Translations under genes and position numbers: made by a program
The notes under the pieces: generated by a model
What the model was told of the DNA's origin: nothing
What the model saw: the letters and a program-made list of their open reading frames with translations, nothing else
Databases searched by the model: none
Shown here: in pieces, positions 2,226 to 10,092 of the stretch
Position numbering within the stretch: position 1 is the stretch's first letter
Layout of the letters: each line of letters opens with the position of its first letter
UHGV virus genome: UHGV-0380619
Source of the DNA: a virus
Length of the DNA: 10,543 bases
Direction: 5' to 3' (one strand)

Positions 2226-2302
2226 TGGCGCGTTGTACTGGATTCGAACCAGTGACCGATTGCTTAGAAGGCAATTGCTCTGTCCGGTTGAGCTAACAAC
2301 GC
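2226..2302 (-). tRNA. tRNA-Arg (anticodon UCU)
   Basis: Reverse complement folds as a cloverleaf: acceptor GCGTTGT/ACAACGC, anticodon stem ATTGC/GCAAT with loop CTTCTAA (anticodon TCT), T-arm ACTGG-TTCGAAT-CCAGT, 3' GCCA. Confidence 0.9.
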
Positions 2303-2315
2303 AGGGTACAGATAA

Positions 2316-2392
2316 TGGACCGCCATCGAGGACTCGAACCCCGCGCAACCAGCTTCGAAGGCTGGTGCTCTATCCTGATGAGCTAATGGCGG
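2316..2392 (-). tRNA. tRNA-Arg (anticodon UCG)
   Basis: Reverse complement: acceptor CCGCCAT/ATGGCGG, D-arm GCTC..GAGC, anticodon stem CCAGC/GCTGG with loop CTTCGAA (anticodon TCG), T-loop TTCGAGT, 3' TCCA. Confidence 0.85.
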
Positions 2393-2399
2393 TATGTGA

Positions 2400-2475
2400 T
2401 GGTGGCCCTTGCTGGATTTGAACCAGCGACCTGGCGATTATGAGTCGCTCGCTCTCACCACTGAGCTAAAGGGCC
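2400..2475 (-). tRNA. tRNA-Ile2 (anticodon CAU, lysidine type; alternatively tRNA-Met)
   Basis: Reverse complement GGCCCTTTAGCTCAGTGGTGAGAGCGAGCGACTCATAATCGCCAGGTCGCTGGTTCAAATCCAGCAAGGGCCACCA: anticodon loop CTCATAA, T-arm GCTGG-TTCAAAT-CCAGC. Closely resembles E. coli ileX as recalled. Confidence 0.85.
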
Positions 2476-2945: not shown

Positions 2946-3326
2946 TTACTTTTTTAGCAGCCAGTCGTCCATCTCCAGTCTTACCCCCAGCACAGACAAA
3001 CATCCGTCAATAAACCCTTCGGCTATCTGCATCTCAATTCGTATTGCTTTTTCGCTTTTCTTTCTCGTCCTGGCTATCTGTCTTTTTGATATTCGCAACA
3101 AATAATGAGCAATGAGAAGCGAATACTCCTCAGGTTTTTTCTGCTTCAGACGAGCAAGACAGTTTTCAATGATAAGTCCGTCATCATCGCAGCAGGCCGG
3201 ACGTGGTTTAGTGGCAGATGGTAAAAGTCCTTTGAATCCGGCAGCGATCGGAGAATAGTCCACCCCGGTGTTACCACTTGCAGCCCATGCCCCCCAGCGT
3301 TCAAGAACCATCTGAATATCACGCAT
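2946..3326 (-). CDS. Q: Late-gene antiterminator Q (phage 82/21 / QuuD-like family)
   Basis: ATG at 3326 (MRDIQMVLERWGAWAA...) preceded by GGAGAAAG; the track's upstream start at 3341 is TTG. Cys-rich motif ACCDDDGLIIENC. Position immediately upstream of the tR'-like terminator and late region. Confidence 0.8.
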   Translation of the reverse strand: MRDIQMVLERWGAWAASGNTGVDYSPIAAGFKGLLPSATKPRPACCDDDGLIIENCLARLKQKKPEEYSLLIAHYLLRISKRQIARTRKKSEKAIRIEMQIAEGFIDGCLSVLGVRLEMDDWLLKK

Positions 3327-3343
3327 CAACTTTCTCCACAAAA

Positions 3344-4339
3344 TCAGGCCAGCACGCCAATTGCCAGCGCACGATCGATAAAACGAAATATCAGCTCCAG
3401 CTGGGAGCCATACTTCTCTTCAAATGCCACGGTATCCGCATGCAGCTCGTCGTGATGCTTTCTGCACAAAGGCAACACAAAGAGGTCATGCGCTTTTGTA
3501 CCCATTCCCCCCTGACCGTGGCCTATCAGGTGGTGGGGATCATCAGCTGGCTTTCCACAACATGCACACGGCTGTGTCTTAACCCAGCGCGTGTACTTTT
3601 CATTAACCCAGCGGCGACGTTTTGGGCGTAACATAAAAGACTCCGGCGACTCCGGATCCACTTTCAGCGCCAGCACCTTTTTCGCTTTATCCTGGATAAT
3701 GCTGGTGGCAGGAACCGAAGGAACAAGGTCACTCTCCCGGGTGACAGACGGCACAACAGGCTTCGGTAATCTCAGTGCCTTACGGGCTGCACTTTCCGGT
3801 AAGGCATCCGCCAGGTCATTACGAATCAGCCACCAGCACAGTTCCGGCATTGTCACAACGTGACTGTCATCAAAACCGAGATCACGGCGCACAACAGATA
3901 ACACCCAGCGGGCACAGTTATCCGTTGCCATTGATTCCAGCCGTTCCGTGAACTGATCGCGCAACTGGTTATCGCAGTGCCAGCACAGACGGATTGCGCC
4001 CGGAGCGTGCCGCATTGTGGTCATGTTCTCGCTGTGCCAGTCGGAATGAGGCCACTGGCAGCCTTTTTCACGAAGTAACCAGCTTTCAAGACATTCCACG
4101 CCACCAGCACGACGGATCACTGCCTCATTGCGGAACACGGCCCGAACGGCAGGATCATCCGCCAGCGGTTGTGATGCCGCCGGAACGGCACCACTGGCGA
4201 AAGATGAATAACGCTCCGGCTCAGGCTCCAGCAGGACACGCCCCTGCATAAACAGGGGCATCAGCTCTGAACCTGGCCTGAACAATACGATCCCCATACG
4301 CGGGGCAATTTCAGGGGTCAGTAGTGCTCTCACAGTCAC
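3344..4339 (-). CDS. DUF968-family phage protein with HNH-like Cys/His motif (YdfU-like)
   Basis: 331-aa ORF. C-terminal CACCGKPADDPHHLIGHGQGGMGTKAHDLFVLPLCRKHHDELH motif. Sits immediately upstream of Q as ydfU does in Qin. Start uncertain: the first codon at 4339 is GTG; internal ATGs are possible. Confidence 0.7.
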   Translation of the reverse strand: MTVRALLTPEIAPRMGIVLFRPGSELMPLFMQGRVLLEPEPERYSSFASGAVPAASQPLADDPAVRAVFRNEAVIRRAGGVECLESWLLREKGCQWPHSDWHSENMTTMRHAPGAIRLCWHCDNQLRDQFTERLESMATDNCARWVLSVVRRDLGFDDSHVVTMPELCWWLIRNDLADALPESAARKALRLPKPVVPSVTRESDLVPSVPATSIIQDKAKKVLALKVDPESPESFMLRPKRRRWVNEKYTRWVKTQPCACCGKPADDPHHLIGHGQGGMGTKAHDLFVLPLCRKHHDELHADTVAFEEKYGSQLELIFRFIDRALAIGVLA

Positions 4340-4340
4340 C

Positions 4341-5183
4341 TCAATGAACGGTATCGAGCAGCTTTAACAGCTCAGGAAATCGGGATTCGAAGAAATGCGG
4401 CTGCGTCTCGCGCGGATTTGCAGGACTGGTGATGTTCTTGCCGAACATGCAGCCTTTCGCCGTCAGCGACCAGAATTTTTTGATGTTGTTAATCGCGGTA
4501 CGGCTGTATCGTTCGCGTTGTTCAACGATCCCCAGCTTCACCATCTGGTGATATGCCTGATTAGCCGTCAGGCGGATACCATACTGTTTCAGCAGTGCAC
4601 TCAGCGACAGCGTGGGGCGACTTGAGCCATCAGGCGCGTCAGCAGGAGCATCAATGGCATAGCGCGGTGCCAGATTCGGTAAGCCAACAGCCTCCTGAAG
4701 CTTCTGACAGGCTCCAAGCACTGATGAGTTAGACAGGTTTAATTCCCGGCGCATAAAGTCCAGCAGGATCACGCCAGCCTGCATCTTGTCAGCAGCCTGC
4801 CCGGATAATTTTTCCGGTGTGCTGGTTACCATATCGAAAGTACGGATCACCTTCAGATGGAATGACGGGCTGATCCACATTGCATAGGCATACACCAGTT
4901 CATTGCAGACATACGTTCCTCCATTCCGCCCTTCTATTTTACTTACTGGTTTACTACCCAAATTTTGGGTAGTTTCATTGAATGAACCGACACCCAAATT
5001 TTGGGTATCGATCAATTCCTGAACCAGCTCAGTAATCTGTTGGCTGGAAAGAAACTTTCCCGGCTCCTTAGTTCTGGCATTTGCACCAGATGCAACAGCA
5101 GCCCGATGCAGATCGTTCAGGCTGTAACGCCCATAAGCATCACGACGAACTTCAATACCATCAATGACCATCAGATTATTCAT
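4341..5183 (-). CDS. KilA-N domain protein with KilAC/ANT-like C-terminal domain (antirepressor-like)
   Basis: ATG at 5183 (MNNLMVIDGIEVRRDAYGRYSLNDLHRAA...) preceded by GAGGAG. N-terminal KilA-N-like region and C-terminal antirepressor-like region, joined by a linker encoded by the palindromic repeats. Confidence 0.75.
   Translation of the reverse strand: MNNLMVIDGIEVRRDAYGRYSLNDLHRAAVASGANARTKEPGKFLSSQQITELVQELIDTQNLGVGSFNETTQNLGSKPVSKIEGRNGGTYVCNELVYAYAMWISPSFHLKVIRTFDMVTSTPEKLSGQAADKMQAGVILLDFMRRELNLSNSSVLGACQKLQEAVGLPNLAPRYAIDAPADAPDGSSRPTLSLSALLKQYGIRLTANQAYHQMVKLGIVEQRERYSRTAINNIKKFWSLTAKGCMFGKNITSPANPRETQPHFFESRFPELLKLLDTVH
4955..5008. repeat. Two copies of a 16-bp element ACCCAAATTTTGGGTA, each an inverted repeat, 36 bp apart, inside the KilA-N gene
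   Basis: Copy 1 at 4956-4971 (extended palindrome TACCCAAA-T-TTTGGGTA at 4955-4971); copy 2 at 4992-5007. They encode the repeated peptide TQNLG in the linker. Confidence 0.8.
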
Positions 5184-5202
5184 ACTTCGTTTCTCCTCTT
5201 GA

Positions 5203-5592
5203 TCAGGCGGCTGCACCCGCCGTTTTCTCGTACTTACTGATAGTGATCTCGACCTTCCCTTCCGGGATAACCGGTCCCCACTCCACCAGCATTCTTTTCA
5301 CCTGGCTGTCGTCTTCCCACACACCCGCGTGGGTCAGGGCGTCAAACAGCGCCTTGTTATAGTTGTCCAGATCGCGGATCCGGTTATCCGGAGGAAACAA
5401 CACGATCTCCACTGAAGCAGGTGCCGACGTTGGTTTCGGCAGACGACGTAACTGCTCAACTATTGCTGTGCACGCCGCACTCTGGAATTTTCGCCCCGCC
5501 GCGCTTATCAGGCTCTTACCAGCAAATGCCCCTTTGTTGGGGTGTCGCCAGTAGGTGTTCACGCTGGGTGGAAAAGGCAGAATCAGCTTCAT
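5203..5592 (-). CDS. rusA: RusA-family Holliday junction resolvase
   Basis: 129-aa ORF MKLILPFPPSVNTYWRH...RDLDNYNKALFDALTHAGVWEDDSQV, matching the RusA motif pattern. The start ATG overlaps the upstream gene's stop (ATGA). Confidence 0.88.
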   Translation of the reverse strand: MKLILPFPPSVNTYWRHPNKGAFAGKSLISAAGRKFQSAACTAIVEQLRRLPKPTSAPASVEIVLFPPDNRIRDLDNYNKALFDALTHAGVWEDDSQVKRMLVEWGPVIPEGKVEITISKYEKTAGAAA

Positions 5593-5915
5593 ACTTTCAG
5601 CCCCCTCTCATGTAACCAGTGGGCTGCACGCAGCCTGGCGTTTTCCTCACCAGCAAGCAGTGCGCGGATAATCCCGGCCACCTCGCTGTCGTCGTCCTTC
5701 ACCGCGGTATGAAGCGTGATGCCCCGGGCCACGCCACGCTTTATCGTGATGACGCCTTTTTTCTCCAGTGCGCGAAGATGCTCCACCGCTGCATTCACTG
5801 AACGGTATCCCAGCATGGTAGCCACCTCCTGATTGGTTGGCGGGAAGCCACGTTCTTTCTGGTAAGAAATCAGCATATCCAGCACCTGCTGCTGGCATTG
5901 AGTTAACGTCGTCAT
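5589..5915 (-). CDS. LexA N-terminal DNA-binding-domain-like protein lacking the S24 peptidase domain
   Basis: From ATG at 5915: MTTLTQCQQQVLDMLISYQKERGFPPTNQEVATMLGYRSVNAAVEHLRALEKKGVITIKRGVARGITL, which aligns by eye with the LexA N-terminus. No Ser/Lys protease domain. Start overlaps the upstream stop (TAATG); stop overlaps the rusA start. Confidence 0.75.
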   Translation of the reverse strand: MTTLTQCQQQVLDMLISYQKERGFPPTNQEVATMLGYRSVNAAVEHLRALEKKGVITIKRGVARGITLHTAVKDDDSEVAGIIRALLAGEENARLRAAHWLHERGLKV

Positions 5916-6403
5916 TAAGCCCCCACGTAATTCCCTGACAGATACCACTCTTCACCCGATACAGCGCGCTTGCTGCTTTTCCGTAAACACCGCTCACGAC
6001 GCGCAAGAAAATTGTTTCGCTCTTGCTGGGAGTGGCTTTCACGGAATGCCGCCATCCACACCGTTGCAGCACGACGGTATAAGCCCCTGGACTCCAGTTC
6101 TTCAGCCTGACGGGTCAGGCACAAAATCACCCAGGGGTCGTTAGTGCCGACATAGAAATTGCTCACAGGTATGGTTTCAAGAACAGGTTGCAGTTTCTCC
6201 TCCTGCGATATCTCAGCCTGGTGTGGGAAATGTCTGCGTGTTTTCCCTTCACAACGGTGAGCCACACGCCCACTCTGACGTAACTTGCTTGCTGACTGCA
6301 GTACGCGCTGCCGTGAGTAACCTGCAAAAGCATCCGCAATGTCTCCGGAAGTACAGCCCGGATGGGCTTCAATGAATTTCTGAACTTCATTCAAAAGACT
6401 CAT
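5915..6403 (-). CDS. PerC-family transcriptional regulator-like protein (YfdN-like) with an N-terminal HTH-like region
   Basis: C-terminal LTRQAEELESRGLYRRAATVWMAAFRESHSQQERNNFLARRERCLRKS resembles PerC/Pch proteins. ATG at 6403 preceded by GGGGGTG; the track start at 6409 is GTG. Confidence 0.6.
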   Translation of the reverse strand: MSLLNEVQKFIEAHPGCTSGDIADAFAGYSRQRVLQSASKLRQSGRVAHRCEGKTRRHFPHQAEISQEEKLQPVLETIPVSNFYVGTNDPWVILCLTRQAEELESRGLYRRAATVWMAAFRESHSQQERNNFLARRERCLRKSSKRAVSGEEWYLSGNYVGA

Positions 6404-6405
6404 GA

Positions 6406-7347
6406 TCACCCCCTGAATCCTTCCGGGATCTGGCTGTAGTCCACGTTGTCGTAACTGGCTTTGAAGTACGGGTCCTCACGTTTTTCTGTGTGCGTGCTGA
6501 CGGACGGCGATAAGCGCAGGGAAAGCTCATCCCATTTTTCCCGCAACTTCGACGGGCTGAGCACGTTACGGCACCAGAACGGATCACGGCTGACGCGGCT
6601 GTACATCTCGCAGATTTGTTTGTGAGTACGACCATCCTGCACACACATCAGGCGAATTTCGTTTGCCCATGCTGTCCAGTTCGGTTCTTTGGGACGAACC
6701 ACCTCGCCGTCACATTCGGCGGCCTGCTCGTACAGGGCGATGATTTTTTTCCAGAGCCACTGTGCGCAGGTCAAATCATCCTGCGTTCCCCACTGGCGCT
6801 TTTTAGGGCTGAATACAACCGCATCAGGATGGCGAGTTAAAAAATCCTGTTCAGCCGTCTGCGTGTCCGGTTGCAAAGCGTCCGGACGAGAAGGTTTTTT
6901 ATCTGACGGATCATGTTTTGATTTTACTGACGGATCCCCGCCAGATTCTGACGGGTGAAAACACGCTTTTTTGCCAGATTTCGACGCATCAAATTTTGAC
7001 GGGTCAGATTTTGATGCGTCAGATTTTGACGGGTCAGAATCTGACAGTTGAGAAAATGCCGCAGCCTGAAGCTTCGCAACGTTAAGCTGATAAACATTCG
7101 ACGCATTGCGGTTACCCTGGCGACGCGCCTTACGCGTTAACCAGCCTTCTGCTTCCAGCCGTGCGATAGCCGTTCTGACGGTACTCATCCCCGCGCCAAT
7201 CTGGCGGGCAATGGTTTCAATTGATGGCCAGCACACACCCTCGTCATTACTGAAATCAGCCAGACGGGCCATAATTGCCACACTGGATAATTTCATGCCT
7301 GACGCTGCGCAACCATCCCATACATAGCCGGTTAATTTGGTGCTCAC
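6406..7347 (-). CDS. Replication initiator (lambda O-like; HTH replisome-organiser N-domain with low-complexity linker)
   Basis: GTG start at 7347 preceded by a strong SD AAGGAGGTG with an in-frame TAA immediately upstream. N-terminal HTH region (LTGYVWDGCAASGMKLSSVAIMARLADFSNDEGVCWPSIETIARQ). Central pentapeptide repeats (SDPSK/SDASK) encoded by iterons. Confidence 0.8.
   Translation of the reverse strand: MSTKLTGYVWDGCAASGMKLSSVAIMARLADFSNDEGVCWPSIETIARQIGAGMSTVRTAIARLEAEGWLTRKARRQGNRNASNVYQLNVAKLQAAAFSQLSDSDPSKSDASKSDPSKFDASKSGKKACFHPSESGGDPSVKSKHDPSDKKPSRPDALQPDTQTAEQDFLTRHPDAVVFSPKKRQWGTQDDLTCAQWLWKKIIALYEQAAECDGEVVRPKEPNWTAWANEIRLMCVQDGRTHKQICEMYSRVSRDPFWCRNVLSPSKLREKWDELSLRLSPSVSTHTEKREDPYFKASYDNVDYSQIPEGFRG
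6901..7048. repeat. Origin-like iteron array inside the O-like gene (about 8 copies, consensus AGATTTTGACGGGTC, 15-bp period in the core)
   Basis: Repeated TCTGACGG(G/A)TC-type units at about 6903, 6926, 6947, 6980, 6996, 7011, 7026 and 7041. Each unit contains a short inverted repeat (TCTGAC..GTCAGA). An AT-richer stretch follows at 6891-6930. Confidence 0.7.
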
Positions 7348-8201
7348 TTACGCACCTCCTTATGCTTTTCGTTCAGTTCCGAGTCCACCAGCCCGGCAAC
7401 GAATACACCATCGTTGATGTAGTCGTAGAGCGATGAAGCCAGCGGAGACTGAACTGAAACCAGCATCGGATAAAGTTGTTCTAACCAAACGCGGTGAATT
7501 TCAGCCATGTAGAGGTAAACAACGTGGGCATTGTGCGCGACACATGAAGTATCAACCTTTCCGATCAGCGCCTGTTCCATCTGGTTAAAGGCATTGATGT
7601 ATGCCTCTTTGAACTGGGCAGCACGTTTACCCGTGAAACCCATAGCAAGAAACGCAAAGCCATCGCGGGTTATTTGATAGCAAGGTAGTTTGCGAGTACC
7701 GCCGTTGGGCTGGCGTACCAAAATTGATGTCTCCGCAAAATTGCGGGCACAAAACTCTGGAGAACAATCCAAAATGCGAATCTTTTTCAGAACATCGTCA
7801 TGACGTTTAGAGAAGAAGTCAGCAACAGCCAAAGAAGATGTAACAGCCTGACCATCAACGATGGCAATTTCAGGTTGAGAGAGGGTTGGGAGAGTAGTCA
7901 TAGTGACAGCCCCGGTAGTCAGTTTTTTAGAAAACTCACCACATGGGACGCCAATCACAGAGGTGGTGAGACGTACAGGGTTGGCGTTACCGGAGACTAC
8001 CGAACCCGGCCCGACCGAAGTCGGCCCTGTACGCCCCACCATAATTTGGGCGTAGCAATGCTCATGACACGAAAAAACCGCATGAGCGCGGTTATGCTCA
8101 GTAATCAATTTCAGGACGCCAATCCCGGCAACGGATTTTGCCGCTGCCAGAACAATATAACGCCCAGAATTATCAGAATCAATCATTACTGGTTTGCTCA
8201 T
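7344..8201 (-). CDS. Rha-family phage regulatory protein with an unassigned ~100-aa N-terminal extension
   Basis: Rha-like core from about residue 101 (MTTLPTLSQPEIAIVDGQAVTSSLAVADFFSKRHDDVLKKIRILD...). ATG at 8201 preceded by AAGGGA; alternative internal start ATG at 7901. The N-terminal 100 aa have coding-like codon usage. Stop overlaps the O-like GTG start. Confidence 0.65.
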   Translation of the reverse strand: MSKPVMIDSDNSGRYIVLAAAKSVAGIGVLKLITEHNRAHAVFSCHEHCYAQIMVGRTGPTSVGPGSVVSGNANPVRLTTSVIGVPCGEFSKKLTTGAVTMTTLPTLSQPEIAIVDGQAVTSSLAVADFFSKRHDDVLKKIRILDCSPEFCARNFAETSILVRQPNGGTRKLPCYQITRDGFAFLAMGFTGKRAAQFKEAYINAFNQMEQALIGKVDTSCVAHNAHVVYLYMAEIHRVWLEQLYPMLVSVQSPLASSLYDYINDGVFVAGLVDSELNEKHKEVRK

Positions 8202-8549: not shown

Positions 8550-9187
8550 GCGTTAGTTTCTCCACAACCAGAAGCAATCGACGCCACGACGCCCGGAGCT
8601 GCACACTCGCGGGCGTTACTCTTTTCCGGCGCACAAAAAACACGAAATAACAGTGTTAAATGCTCCTGCCACTTCGCCATTACTTGGTAGCTGTTCTCTT
8701 CGATTTGCTCACGCTCAGCTTGGTCAATAACTCCATCAGCAGTTGCCTTGCGTAAGTACTGGGAATGCTTGCCAATCCATTCTATTGACTCCATCAGCCG
8801 CTGATTAATGTCACCATTGTCAATGTCATCAATGACCACCAGCGGCACAAACACCCCATTACTACGACGGGCTATTGCATCCGTTACATGCCTGGTACCA
8901 CTGGCATCCTGTAAAACCATGGCCCACTCAAGTGGAAAAATTTGATCCCCACCGCTACGCAGTCTGTTATGCAATTGATCTTTTGCTGGGGTGATATCAT
9001 CAGATTTATACAAACCAAGAATTTCTGCTGCTTCCTCATAGCCATGAGGTAAATCAGCAATCGTTCTTCGTATTGCTGCCACCAGCCATGCTGGTTGCTT
9101 ATCAACTTTCCATTCAGGTTCTTTACCCACGTTTAAGCCCTCATATCTGTGGTTTCTGTAAATCGATTTATCCATTAGATTTTTCAT
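8546..9187 (-). CDS. CII-like / YdaT-like early regulatory protein (family uncertain)
   Basis: Long ORF immediately downstream of the Cro-like gene. Start not resolved: ATG at 9187 or 9175, both with weak SD; the track start at 9244 is GTG and would overlap cro extensively. Confidence 0.5.
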
Positions 9188-9368
9188 AAAGCTCAGGTTT
9201 AAATGGCAACCGTCCGCAAGTTCTATATGCAGCCTCTGCTGCACGTCCTTTTGGAATTAACTGGCCAGGACGGTTTCGCCACTGATAAACGGCTTCAGTT
9301 GTTATGCCGAAAAAAGCAGCAACTTTCTCAATGCTGCCGAAGTAGCTTTCGATATCGTCAGTCGTCAT
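9168..9368 (-). CDS. cro: Cro-like repressor (YdaS-type HTH)
   Basis: 66-aa ORF. ATG at 9368 preceded by GGAGGG. Motif VAAFFGITTEAVYQWRNRPGQLIPKGRAAEA resembles the YdaS/Cro family. Divergent from the CI gene across an operator-rich intergenic region. Confidence 0.75.
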   Translation of the reverse strand: MTTDDIESYFGSIEKVAAFFGITTEAVYQWRNRPGQLIPKGRAAEAAYRTCGRLPFKPELYEKSNG

Positions 9369-9465: not shown

Positions 9466-10092
9466 ATGGAAACGGTTGGTCAGCGTATAAAAGCTCTGAG
9501 AAGAGTTACCAGAACGTCCCAGAAAGAATTGGGTAAATTTTGTGGAGTAAGTGACGTTGCTGTGGGGTACTGGGAGAAAGACATCAATGTCCCTGGTGGG
9601 GAAGCACTTTCAAAATTAGCGAAGTTCTTCAATACGTCAATAGATTACATTCTTTATGGTGCGGAGTTTGAAGGCAAACTCGTCACAAACATGCGCAGAG
9701 TTCCTGTAATCTCGTGGGTTCAGGCTGGGCAGTTTACTGAGTGCAGGACAGCAGAAGTGTTTAGTGAAGTAGACAAGTGGGTAGATACATCATTAAAGAT
9801 TGGTGATAACTCATTTGCATTGGAGGTTAAAGGCGACTCCATGACTAACCCTAACGGCCTCCCAACAATACCAGAAGGCGCAACAGTGATTGTAGATCCT
9901 GATGCAGAACCCCGGCATGGAAAAATAGTCATCGCTAGACTTGATGGAACAAACGAAGCCACAGTAAAAAAATTAGTTATCGATGGCCCTCAAAAGTTTT
10001 TAGTGCCATTAAATCCCCGGTACCCCAACATCCCGATCAATGGTAATTGCCTCATCATTGGTGTAGTCAAAGGAGTTCAATACGAACTCTAG
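9466..10092 (+). CDS. cI: CI-type prophage repressor (HTH-XRE N-domain plus LexA-like S24 autopeptidase C-domain)
   Basis: 208-aa ORF. N-terminal HTH (QKELGKFCGVSDVAVGYWEKD). C-terminal S24 motifs: GDSM (Ser nucleophile) and VKKL (Lys), with a QAG candidate cleavage region. Confidence 0.9.
   Translation: METVGQRIKALRRVTRTSQKELGKFCGVSDVAVGYWEKDINVPGGEALSKLAKFFNTSIDYILYGAEFEGKLVTNMRRVPVISWVQAGQFTECRTAEVFSEVDKWVDTSLKIGDNSFALEVKGDSMTNPNGLPTIPEGATVIVDPDAEPRHGKIVIARLDGTNEATVKKLVIDGPQKFLVPLNPRYPNIPINGNCLIIGVVKGVQYEL

Follow-up and report, generated by a model that had tools for sequence, protein, structure and literature searches.

What does the DNA-binding domain of LexA do in a phage when it comes without the protease domain through which LexA is cleaved? 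The question is raised by a gene of 108 codons in UHGV virus genome UHGV-0380619, a stretch of 10,543 nucleotides (nt) that is referred to below as the window and whose numbering is used throughout; all genes of interest lie on its minus strand. The window covers the early-right and lysis regions of a lambdoid prophage. The 108-codon gene, called here the LexA-like gene, is almost certainly an intact and conserved member of the early-right (nin-type) operon of a prophage of the SfV / mEp460 / cdtI / CPS-53 kind, and its product consists of a LexA winged helix followed by a family-specific two-helix tail, with no S24 protease domain.

The LexA-like protein and its family

Residues 1-68 of the protein are a full LexA winged-helix DNA-binding domain. 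The Pfam family LexA_DNA_bind (PF01726) matched residues 1-65 over all 65 of its profile positions (E=2.9e-19, 69 bits against a cutoff of 23.7), BLASTP aligned the protein without gaps to residues 1-68 of E. coli LexA with 35 identities in 68 positions (51%), and the best match found by phmmer in the PDB was the LexA DNA-binding domain 1lea (8e-16). The protein was modelled as a monomer with AlphaFold2 (AF2) from an alignment of 35 sequences, giving a predicted local distance difference test score (pLDDT) of 82.6; a model made from the single sequence (pLDDT 52) was discarded for the alignment-based one. The model contains the elements of a winged helix-turn-helix (wHTH), namely three helices (residues 6-22, 28-35 and 40-52) and a two-strand wing (56-58 and 66-68), and Foldseek ranked the LexA-DNA complex 3jso first, with a root-mean-square deviation (rmsd) of 1.0 Å over 68 residues. 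An earlier note on this DNA, made from the sequence alone, had aligned the protein by eye along the whole LexA N-terminal domain and had proposed a Pfam search and a structural superposition as checks; both were run and both match that domain. The sole PADLOC match of the protein, to a CARF model (18 bits), was dismissed as a generic wHTH match.

The remainder of LexA is absent. The protein ends at residue 108 and gave no match to Peptidase_S24 in Pfam, and with the NCBIfam lexA equivalog TIGR00498 it scored 67.4 bits, below the cutoff of 110.95, over profile positions 1-91 of 203 only. Since it has no S24 peptidase domain, it is unable to autocleave, as the earlier note had stated, and is not RecA-inducible as LexA is. 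PGAP names the gene product 'LexA family protein' or 'LexA family transcriptional regulator', and GenBank phage records (H47, H52, H63, H75) carry the names 'SOS-response repressor and protease LexA', 'RecA-mediated autopeptidases' and 'LexA repressor'. As the protein has no protease domain, both protease names are wrong and are annotation errors; the database names, 'transcriptional repressor' included, are homology transfers that overstate what is known.

In the AF2 model the residues that follow the wing form a linker and two helices (residues 73-88 and 93-103), with block-mean pLDDT values of 87 for residues 81-90 and 85 for residues 91-100. The 40 residues of this tail are kept in 35 homologues from at least seven genera, with the consensus ..EAvxLiRALLxGExxARxRAxxxLxxRG.. 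and with A97 and L101 invariant. A profile search made with the tail only found no homologue below E=0.1 in the PDB or Pfam. Judging from the model, we propose that the hairpin may be a dimerisation element that replaces the C-terminal dimerisation domain of LexA. The tail stretch VAGIIRALLAGE (codons 81-92) was aligned by MAFFT with the LexA cleavage-site region LVGRVAAGE, A87-G88 falling on A84-G85 of LexA. This Ala-Gly pair is not conserved across the branches of the family and there is no catalytic domain in cis; the stretch may be a vestige of an ancestral lexA. The possibility that the gene is a fragment of a disrupted full-length lexA was rejected because of the conserved tail and of a size that stays at 104-112 amino acids (aa) in most branches.

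The protein belongs to a widespread family. It matched phrog_362 over its full length (7e-58, residues 1-108 against positions 1-106 of 106); this family includes SfV orf42, mEp460 gp46 and cdtI orf48, and identity to the phage proteins is 94-97%. The module is present in 2,703 of 5,426 complete E. coli genomes, and a tblastn search of 50,697 phage records gave 63 matches at E<=1e-3, the carriers including SfV, SfII, SfIV, cdtI, mEp460, mEp390 and Shiga toxin (Stx) phages of the Stx2a and Stx2c types. Full-length relatives with 40-65% identity were found by profile searches in Citrobacter, Salmonella, Cronobacter, Klebsiella, Enterobacter, Kosakonia and Atlantibacter, and an 87% homologue in a Hafnia metagenome-assembled genome. 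The LexA-like gene is real: it is conserved across genera at 40-65% identity with its synteny kept, which excludes a chance reading frame. Among four alleles from E. coli and Shigella prophages and phages, the ratio of non-synonymous to synonymous substitution rates (dN/dS) is 0 to 0.4, with 0-6 non-synonymous differences per pair; the sole replacement in the wHTH is V55I in SfV, the others being in the tail. According to BFVD, phages of many hosts frequently encode proteins of 70-150 aa that consist of a stand-alone LexA DNA-binding domain. Proteins of 140-350 aa with two tandem LexA DNA-binding domains in one chain were also seen (P0129, P0130, P0146, P0150-P0153); such 'covalent dimers' would be another way to dispense with the S24 dimerisation domain.

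Residues S39, N41, A42, E44 and E45 of LexA, all in helix 3, contact DNA (PMC3091678; PMC13416735). At these positions the LexA-like protein reads S, N, A, V and E, that is, four of the five contacts are kept and E44 is replaced by V. Among the 35 family members, S39 and N41 are found in all 35 and A42 in 28; E does not occur at position 44 (A 11, V 8, L 7, T 4, F 4, N 1), and position 45 is E in 19, D in 7, L in 6, T in 2 and G in 1. R64 and G65, in the wing, are invariant across genera like S39 and N41. As read from this alignment, the recognition surface appears LexA-like, systematically altered at one contact and variable at another, and it would be compatible with a half-site related to CTGT. 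Cyanobacterial LexAs recognise a different box. They differ at positions 41, 42, 44 and 45 (PMC13416735).

Position in the operon and the methyltransferase slot

The LexA-like gene is part of a leftward operon of closely packed genes, in which it comes after cro and the replication gene and before Q; the order is cro, replication gene, PerC-like gene, a methyltransferase slot that is empty in the window, LexA-like gene, rusA, KilA-N gene, DUF968 gene and Q. Its ATG is at 5915 and its stop at 5591-5589; an alternative GTG-started open reading frame (ORF) of 119 aa exists, and the homologues and PGAP use the ATG of the 108-aa form. Both immediate neighbours score above their Pfam cutoffs and are those named by the earlier note: a PerC-family protein upstream (8.9e-10, 39.1 bits against 22.6, residues 100-152; 'PerC family transcriptional regulator', yfdN, in PGAP) and RusA downstream (7.4e-15, 56.1 bits against 22.8, residues 6-118; phrog_34 at 1e-57). 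Of the three genes that the note had placed at 5589-6403, the LexA-like and PerC-like genes lie inside this range and rusA just outside it. The closest public sequence, a prophage of E. coli ECSC054, is 98.9% identical over 5100-6500 and has the same gene string according to PGAP. A simple scan of 5900-6500 found no promoter-like site on the strand of the LexA-like gene, nor did short inverted-repeat and promoter/terminator scans of the window find one ahead of it.

The overlaps on either side of the gene can be read directly in the sequence. At TAATG, the PerC-like stop TAA (5917-5915) and the LexA-like ATG (5915-5913) share one base, and at ATGA (5592-5589) the stop region of the LexA-like gene overlaps the ATG of rusA. 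G-rich runs resembling Shine-Dalgarno sequences lie within the upstream genes, GTGGGGG being 4 nt before the LexA-like ATG and GAGAGGGGG about 9 nt ahead of the rusA ATG. The three genes had been taken from these overlaps to form a co-translated unit, an idea that was not supported, in this form, by the comparison with relatives. The stop of the replication gene is 2 nt from the PerC-like ATG and the KilA-N gene follows closely after rusA; as genes abut or overlap all along the early-right operon, close packing is no mark of a dedicated unit. Across genera, the order is PerC-like, one or two DNA methyltransferases, LexA-like, RusA, KilA-N or Rha/ANT, DUF968 and Q. In most relatives, among them SfV, mEp460 and those from Cronobacter, Salmonella and Kosakonia, the PerC-like gene is separated from the LexA-like gene by one or two methyltransferase genes, and the slot is filled by Dam (PF05869) in E. 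coli and Cronobacter, by Dam and a C5 methylase (PF00145) in Salmonella and by a D12-class enzyme (PF02086) in Kosakonia; in Klebsiella and Enterobacter relatives, no methyltransferase adjoins the LexA-like gene. When the window was aligned with both SfV junctions (SfV L002 3806-4459), its empty slot corresponded to a precise 650-bp ATG-to-ATG insertion/deletion (indel) at an ATGA microhomology. This dam-less junction is found in 761 of the 5,426 complete E. coli genomes, compared with about 2,700 that carry the module; being in the minority, it marks the overlap of the PerC-like and LexA-like genes as a secondary arrangement. Upstream of the LexA-like gene there is a 4-nt overlap with the methyltransferase gene in Cronobacter and Salmonella and a 9-nt gap in Kosakonia. 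The ATGA overlap of the LexA-like gene with rusA is kept in E. coli, Cronobacter, Salmonella and Kosakonia relatives and is the only overlap conserved across genera. Combined, the dam indel and the variable methyltransferase slot argue against a dedicated unit of PerC-like, LexA-like and RusA genes. The genes that stay together as a block are LexA-like, RusA (in most relatives), DUF968 and Q, and the nin-type position, between replication genes and Q and followed by RusA and/or DUF968, is common to the window, SfV, mEp460, Cronobacter, Salmonella, Kosakonia, Enterobacter and Klebsiella.

SOS boxes in related loci and other features of the window

SOS boxes were scored with a position-specific scoring matrix (PSSM) made from 19 E. 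coli SOS boxes, which themselves score 13-27 bits; absolute scores are approximate. Strong boxes (20-26 bits) number four in mEp460, three in cdtI, two in 2H10 and one in SfV, and lambda has no box above 15 bits. In the sister phages they sit at the dinI promoter (two each), at the start of the late methyltransferase gene and in the cI-like gene of mEp460 (25.8 bits, 31970-31989). The late-region DNA methyltransferase gene, which is located between Q and the holin gene, carries an identical 22.7-bit box, TACTGTAAAAATAAACAGTG, 8 nt inside its start in mEp460 (L009 41021-41040), SfV (L014 34170-34189), cdtI (L015 44083-44102) and ECSC054 (L001 2876-2895). The Klebsiella loci (L003-L005, 4385-4404) have a box of 27.1 bits, TACTGTTTATTTATACAGTA, that overlaps a good TTGAAC/TATACT promoter 20 nt upstream of dinI; dinI is followed by a small conserved ORF, the LexA-like gene, a 67-aa ORF and DUF968. 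The LexA-like gene is there the second gene after dinI within one gene string, and in mEp460, cdtI and 2H10 dinI is in the same phage. No convincing terminator was found between the Klebsiella dinI and LexA-like genes, and the locus looks like a widespread prophage remnant. In Enterobacter (L011, 4560-4579), a 20.1-bit box is present upstream of the same small ORF, which the LexA-like gene follows. These boxes would tie the family to SOS-regulated settings; with five genomes and shared ancestry the comparison is no real test, and the link is circumstantial.

The features of the window are collected in Table 1. The late-region methyltransferase gene is represented there by its C-terminal 92 codons alone, and its SOS box has consequently been lost. 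Just downstream of this remnant are three minus-strand tRNA genes, Met(CAT), Arg(TCG) and Arg(TCT), the usual cluster between Q and the lysis genes of Stx-like prophages. In the replication-protein gene, a 15-nt unit, CAGATTTTGACGGGT, is repeated about four times, accompanied by overlapping inverted repeats, and encodes a repetitive SKSD(A/P) linker; the arrangement looks like an iteron-type origin within the initiator gene, as in lambda O. In the 5' part of the KilA-N gene, the perfect palindrome TACCCAAATTTTGGGTA occurs twice, 37 bp apart, and encodes the repeated peptide TQNLG; it could be a protein-binding site or a coding coincidence. The KilA-N protein also gave a 30-bit match to PDC-S22 in the PADLOC defence models.

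Table 1. Features of the 10,543-nt window
Feature	Positions	Strand	Basis or remark
cI-like repressor, HTH_3 + Peptidase_S24	9466-10092	+	Pfam; Peptidase_S24 1.6e-27
cro, divergent from cI-like repressor	9168-9368	-	
YmfL-like gene	between cro and the 7344-8201 gene	-	
Rha family gene	7344-8201	-	PGAP name in ECSC054
HTH_36 replication protein	6406-7347	-	Pfam
Repeats within replication-protein gene	6975-7045		
PerC-family / YfdN-like gene, upstream neighbour	5915-6403 from ATG, 6409 from GTG	-	Pfam PerC, phrog_1324
TAATG, PerC-like stop/LexA-like start	5913-5917	-	site of the 650-bp dam-cassette indel
LexA-like gene, 108 aa (SfV orf42 / PHROG 362 family)	5589-5915	-	Pfam LexA_DNA_bind, phrog_362, PGAP 'LexA family protein'
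LexA-like codons 1-68, winged helix-turn-helix	5712-5915	-	homologous to LexA residues 1-68
LexA-like codons 40-52, recognition helix VNAAVEHLRALEK	5760-5798	-	contact residues from PMC3091678, PMC13416735
LexA-like codons 69-108, linker + two-helix tail	5592-5711	-	AF2, conservation
LexA-like codons 81-92, VAGIIRALLAGE	5640-5675	-	MAFFT alignment with LexA
ATGA, LexA-like stop/rusA start overlap	5589-5592	-	
rusA, RusA Holliday-junction resolvase, downstream neighbour	5203-5592	-	Pfam RusA, phrog_34
KilA-N gene	4341-5216	-	Pfam
Palindromes in KilA-N gene	4953-5007		
DUF968 gene	3344-4339	-	Pfam
Antiterminator Q	2946-3341	-	Pfam
Region of methyltransferase remnant and tRNA genes	2516-2794 and 2226-2475		

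Possible functions of the LexA-like protein

The position of the gene indicates when its product is made. As it belongs to the pR operon, the product is made only after the S24-type repressor of the prophage has been lost, and transcription from pR would coincide with recent cleavage of host LexA. Possibly, and we put this forward tentatively, the protein is produced in lytic growth to bind SOS-type boxes, probably as a dimer, and cannot be removed by RecA. Dimers would form via the C-terminal helical hairpin and would occupy operators of the CTGT type, predicted to resemble SOS boxes. As a surrogate of LexA that is proof against RecA, the dimer would re-close some or all LexA-controlled promoters during lytic growth, the candidate targets being SOS genes of the host as well as the dinI and late methyltransferase genes of sister phages, which are under SOS-box control. 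In Klebsiella and Enterobacter the gene is downstream of a strong SOS box; it would thus be SOS-induced there and provide a delayed negative feedback. Taken as a whole, the proposal that such a surrogate dimerises via an undescribed two-helix tail and re-closes LexA-controlled promoters in lytic development is, on balance, unlikely to hold in every part. The earlier note had suggested that an uncleavable binder could be a decoy or competitor at SOS boxes or prophage operators. We favour a binder of SOS-type boxes because S39, N41 and A42 are retained and because of the SOS-box and dinI contexts in relatives, and there is precedent in mobile elements already known to modulate SOS or LexA (GIL01 gp7/gp6, Listeria AriS).

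Several observations weigh against this proposal. The window itself contains no SOS box, in agreement with the earlier note: exact matches to CTGT-N8-ACAG were absent, matches with one mismatch (6, with 3.5 expected) were not above chance, and the best PSSM score was 9.8 bits compared with a median maximum of 9.0 in shuffled windows. A search for perfect inverted-repeat cores of 4 and 5 nt with spacers of 4-12 nt revealed no non-coding palindrome shared by seven loci, nor was any other candidate operator found in the window; the recurrent palindromes that were inspected lie in coding sequence, for example CCAGCA-N5-TGCTGG in QQxVL codons. In the recognition helix, E44 is replaced in 35 of 35 members whereas the closest full-length LexAs strictly keep it, as NAAE(E/D/Q/S)H, and E45 is replaced in 16 of 35 (D in 7; L, T or G in 9), the Klebsiella branch reading NAVLLH. 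The host SOS box is, to our knowledge, identical across Enterobacteriaceae. Variability at positions 44 and 45 against a constant box points to a shifted or lineage-specific operator in place of the canonical one, and these changes appear to argue against strict mimicry of host LexA. The structural model is that of a monomer, so dimerisation is itself conjectural, and the tail, which comes directly after the wing, could set a half-site spacing unlike that of LexA. Finally, no functional or experimental study of this enterobacterial family was found in the full-text literature, where it appears in annotation tables only.

The same changes at positions 44 and 45 are what would be expected if a captured LexA domain had been retargeted to a phage promoter (late, nin-region or moron), acting there as an activator or a repressor on an operator of its own and without direct action on host SOS boxes. 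This is the main rival explanation, and we hold it to be only a little less likely than the binding of SOS-type boxes. Its model is gp6 of GIL01, a tectivirus of Bacillus thuringiensis; gp6 is described as a wHTH alone, a truncated LexA homologue that binds the palindrome GaCACAn nTGTGaC at -43.5 and activates the late promoter P3 (PMC6182141). Stand-alone domains of this size are frequent in phages, and the absence of E at position 44, together with the variation of position 45 by genus, looks as if the operator co-evolved with the phage lineage. It is opposed by the retention of S39, N41 and A42 and by the failure to find a conserved non-coding palindrome among the loci searched, and Q-type antitermination already explains the control of late genes in this phage type. 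In addition, neither the tally of names from the tblastn search nor the matches listed (40 of 63) included a Bacillus phage or tectivirus; among those listed there is, therefore, no direct sequence link to gp6.

The gene might instead be a controller or accessory of the upstream methyltransferase slot, tuning its expression or damping the SOS and restriction damage caused by foreign methylation. In relatives it directly follows methyltransferases of three unrelated Pfam families, PF05869, PF00145 and PF02086, and the late-region methyltransferase gene of SfV, cdtI, mEp460 and ECSC054 has a strong SOS box 8 nt inside it; Heitman and Model are said to have reported in 1987 that foreign methylases induce SOS via Mcr/Mrr. 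We consider this role improbable, since an intact gene persists without an upstream methyltransferase in the window and in 761 of the complete E. coli genomes, no methyltransferase adjoins it in the Klebsiella and Enterobacter relatives, and controllers of restriction-modification systems are usually upstream of the methyltransferase, whereas this gene is downstream. That the protein acts by binding proteins, as a decoy for a LexA-interacting factor, or is a decaying and functionless fragment of a captured lexA is very improbable. The missing LexA dimerisation domain and the alignment of VAGIIRALLAGE with the cleavage-site region, Ala-Gly included, as a possible relic, could be taken in this sense. 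Against this, S39, N41, R64 and G65 do not vary between genera, dN/dS stays below 1 and the wHTH is identical in four alleles except for V55I in SfV. Conservation of the tail extends to 40% overall identity, thousands of genomes carry intact members of the family, and the Ala-Gly pair is not conserved in it. A decoy is also disfavoured by 8trg, which we take to be a RecA-LexA structure in which RecA is engaged by the LexA C-terminal domain, the part that is missing here.

Compared with known systems, the protein shares with the N-terminal domain of E. coli LexA (1lea, 3jso) the same winged helix, with S39, N41, A42 and E45 kept. LexA has in addition a linker and an S24 serine protease/dimerisation domain with a Ser119/Lys156 dyad, which the 108-aa protein is without, whereas the latter has V at position 44 and a 40-residue two-helix tail that is absent from LexA. 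Non-cleavable LexA (Ind-) is a mutant, and LexA 1-84 is a degradation intermediate of host LexA that is cleared by ClpXP. By analogy, the LexA-like protein would resemble both in function if SOS boxes were bound, in that RecA* could not remove it; unlike them, it is encoded by a gene that is phage-borne, has evolved separately and comes with a C-terminal module of its own. It resembles GIL01 gp6 as a phage-encoded, near-bare LexA DNA-binding domain that is the product of an early gene, in a phage cycle tied to SOS (PMC6182141), and differs from it by the conserved tail and by the setting in a lambdoid nin-type operon with Q. Prophage DinI homologues, GIL01 gp7 (PMC6182141), Listeria phage AriS and plasmid PsiB also come from mobile elements and damp or remodel the SOS response of the host, as the LexA-like protein would; these modulators act on RecA or on the LexA protein, whereas the LexA-like protein would act at the operator. 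SfV orf42, mEp460 gp46, cdtI orf48 and PHROG 362 are the same family, the window merely being without the usual preceding dam gene. A pham of 15 Stx phages annotated 'LexA family transcriptional regulator, pfam01726', listed as 'pham 237', is probably this family (PMC8136144). A phage protein limited to the LexA DNA-binding domain is thus already known as a kind from gp6, and the gene has been on record since the sequencing of SfV; the distinguishing features of the family are the conserved tail and the nin-operon setting. Nothing was found that lies outside expectation for phage regulatory genes.

SOS governs mutagenesis, persistence, the induction of Shiga-toxin phages and competition among co-resident prophages, and the module is carried by Stx2-converting, cytolethal distending toxin (Cdt)-converting and serotype-converting phages. 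If the protein recognised an operator of its own, it would be the second independent LexA DNA-binding domain retargeted by a phage after GIL01 gp6, and the first with an added dimerisation-like tail. If, on the other hand, it bound boxes of the SOS type, a very common prophage gene would be an unrecognised SOS modulator. Should the surrogate of LexA proposed above be right, it would constitute a phage-encoded 'SOS off-switch' working at the level of the operator and not on RecA or the LexA protein, and it would also shut off LexA-gated competitors, namely antirepressor-controlled prophages, colicins and SOS-box morons such as dinI and the late methyltransferase gene.

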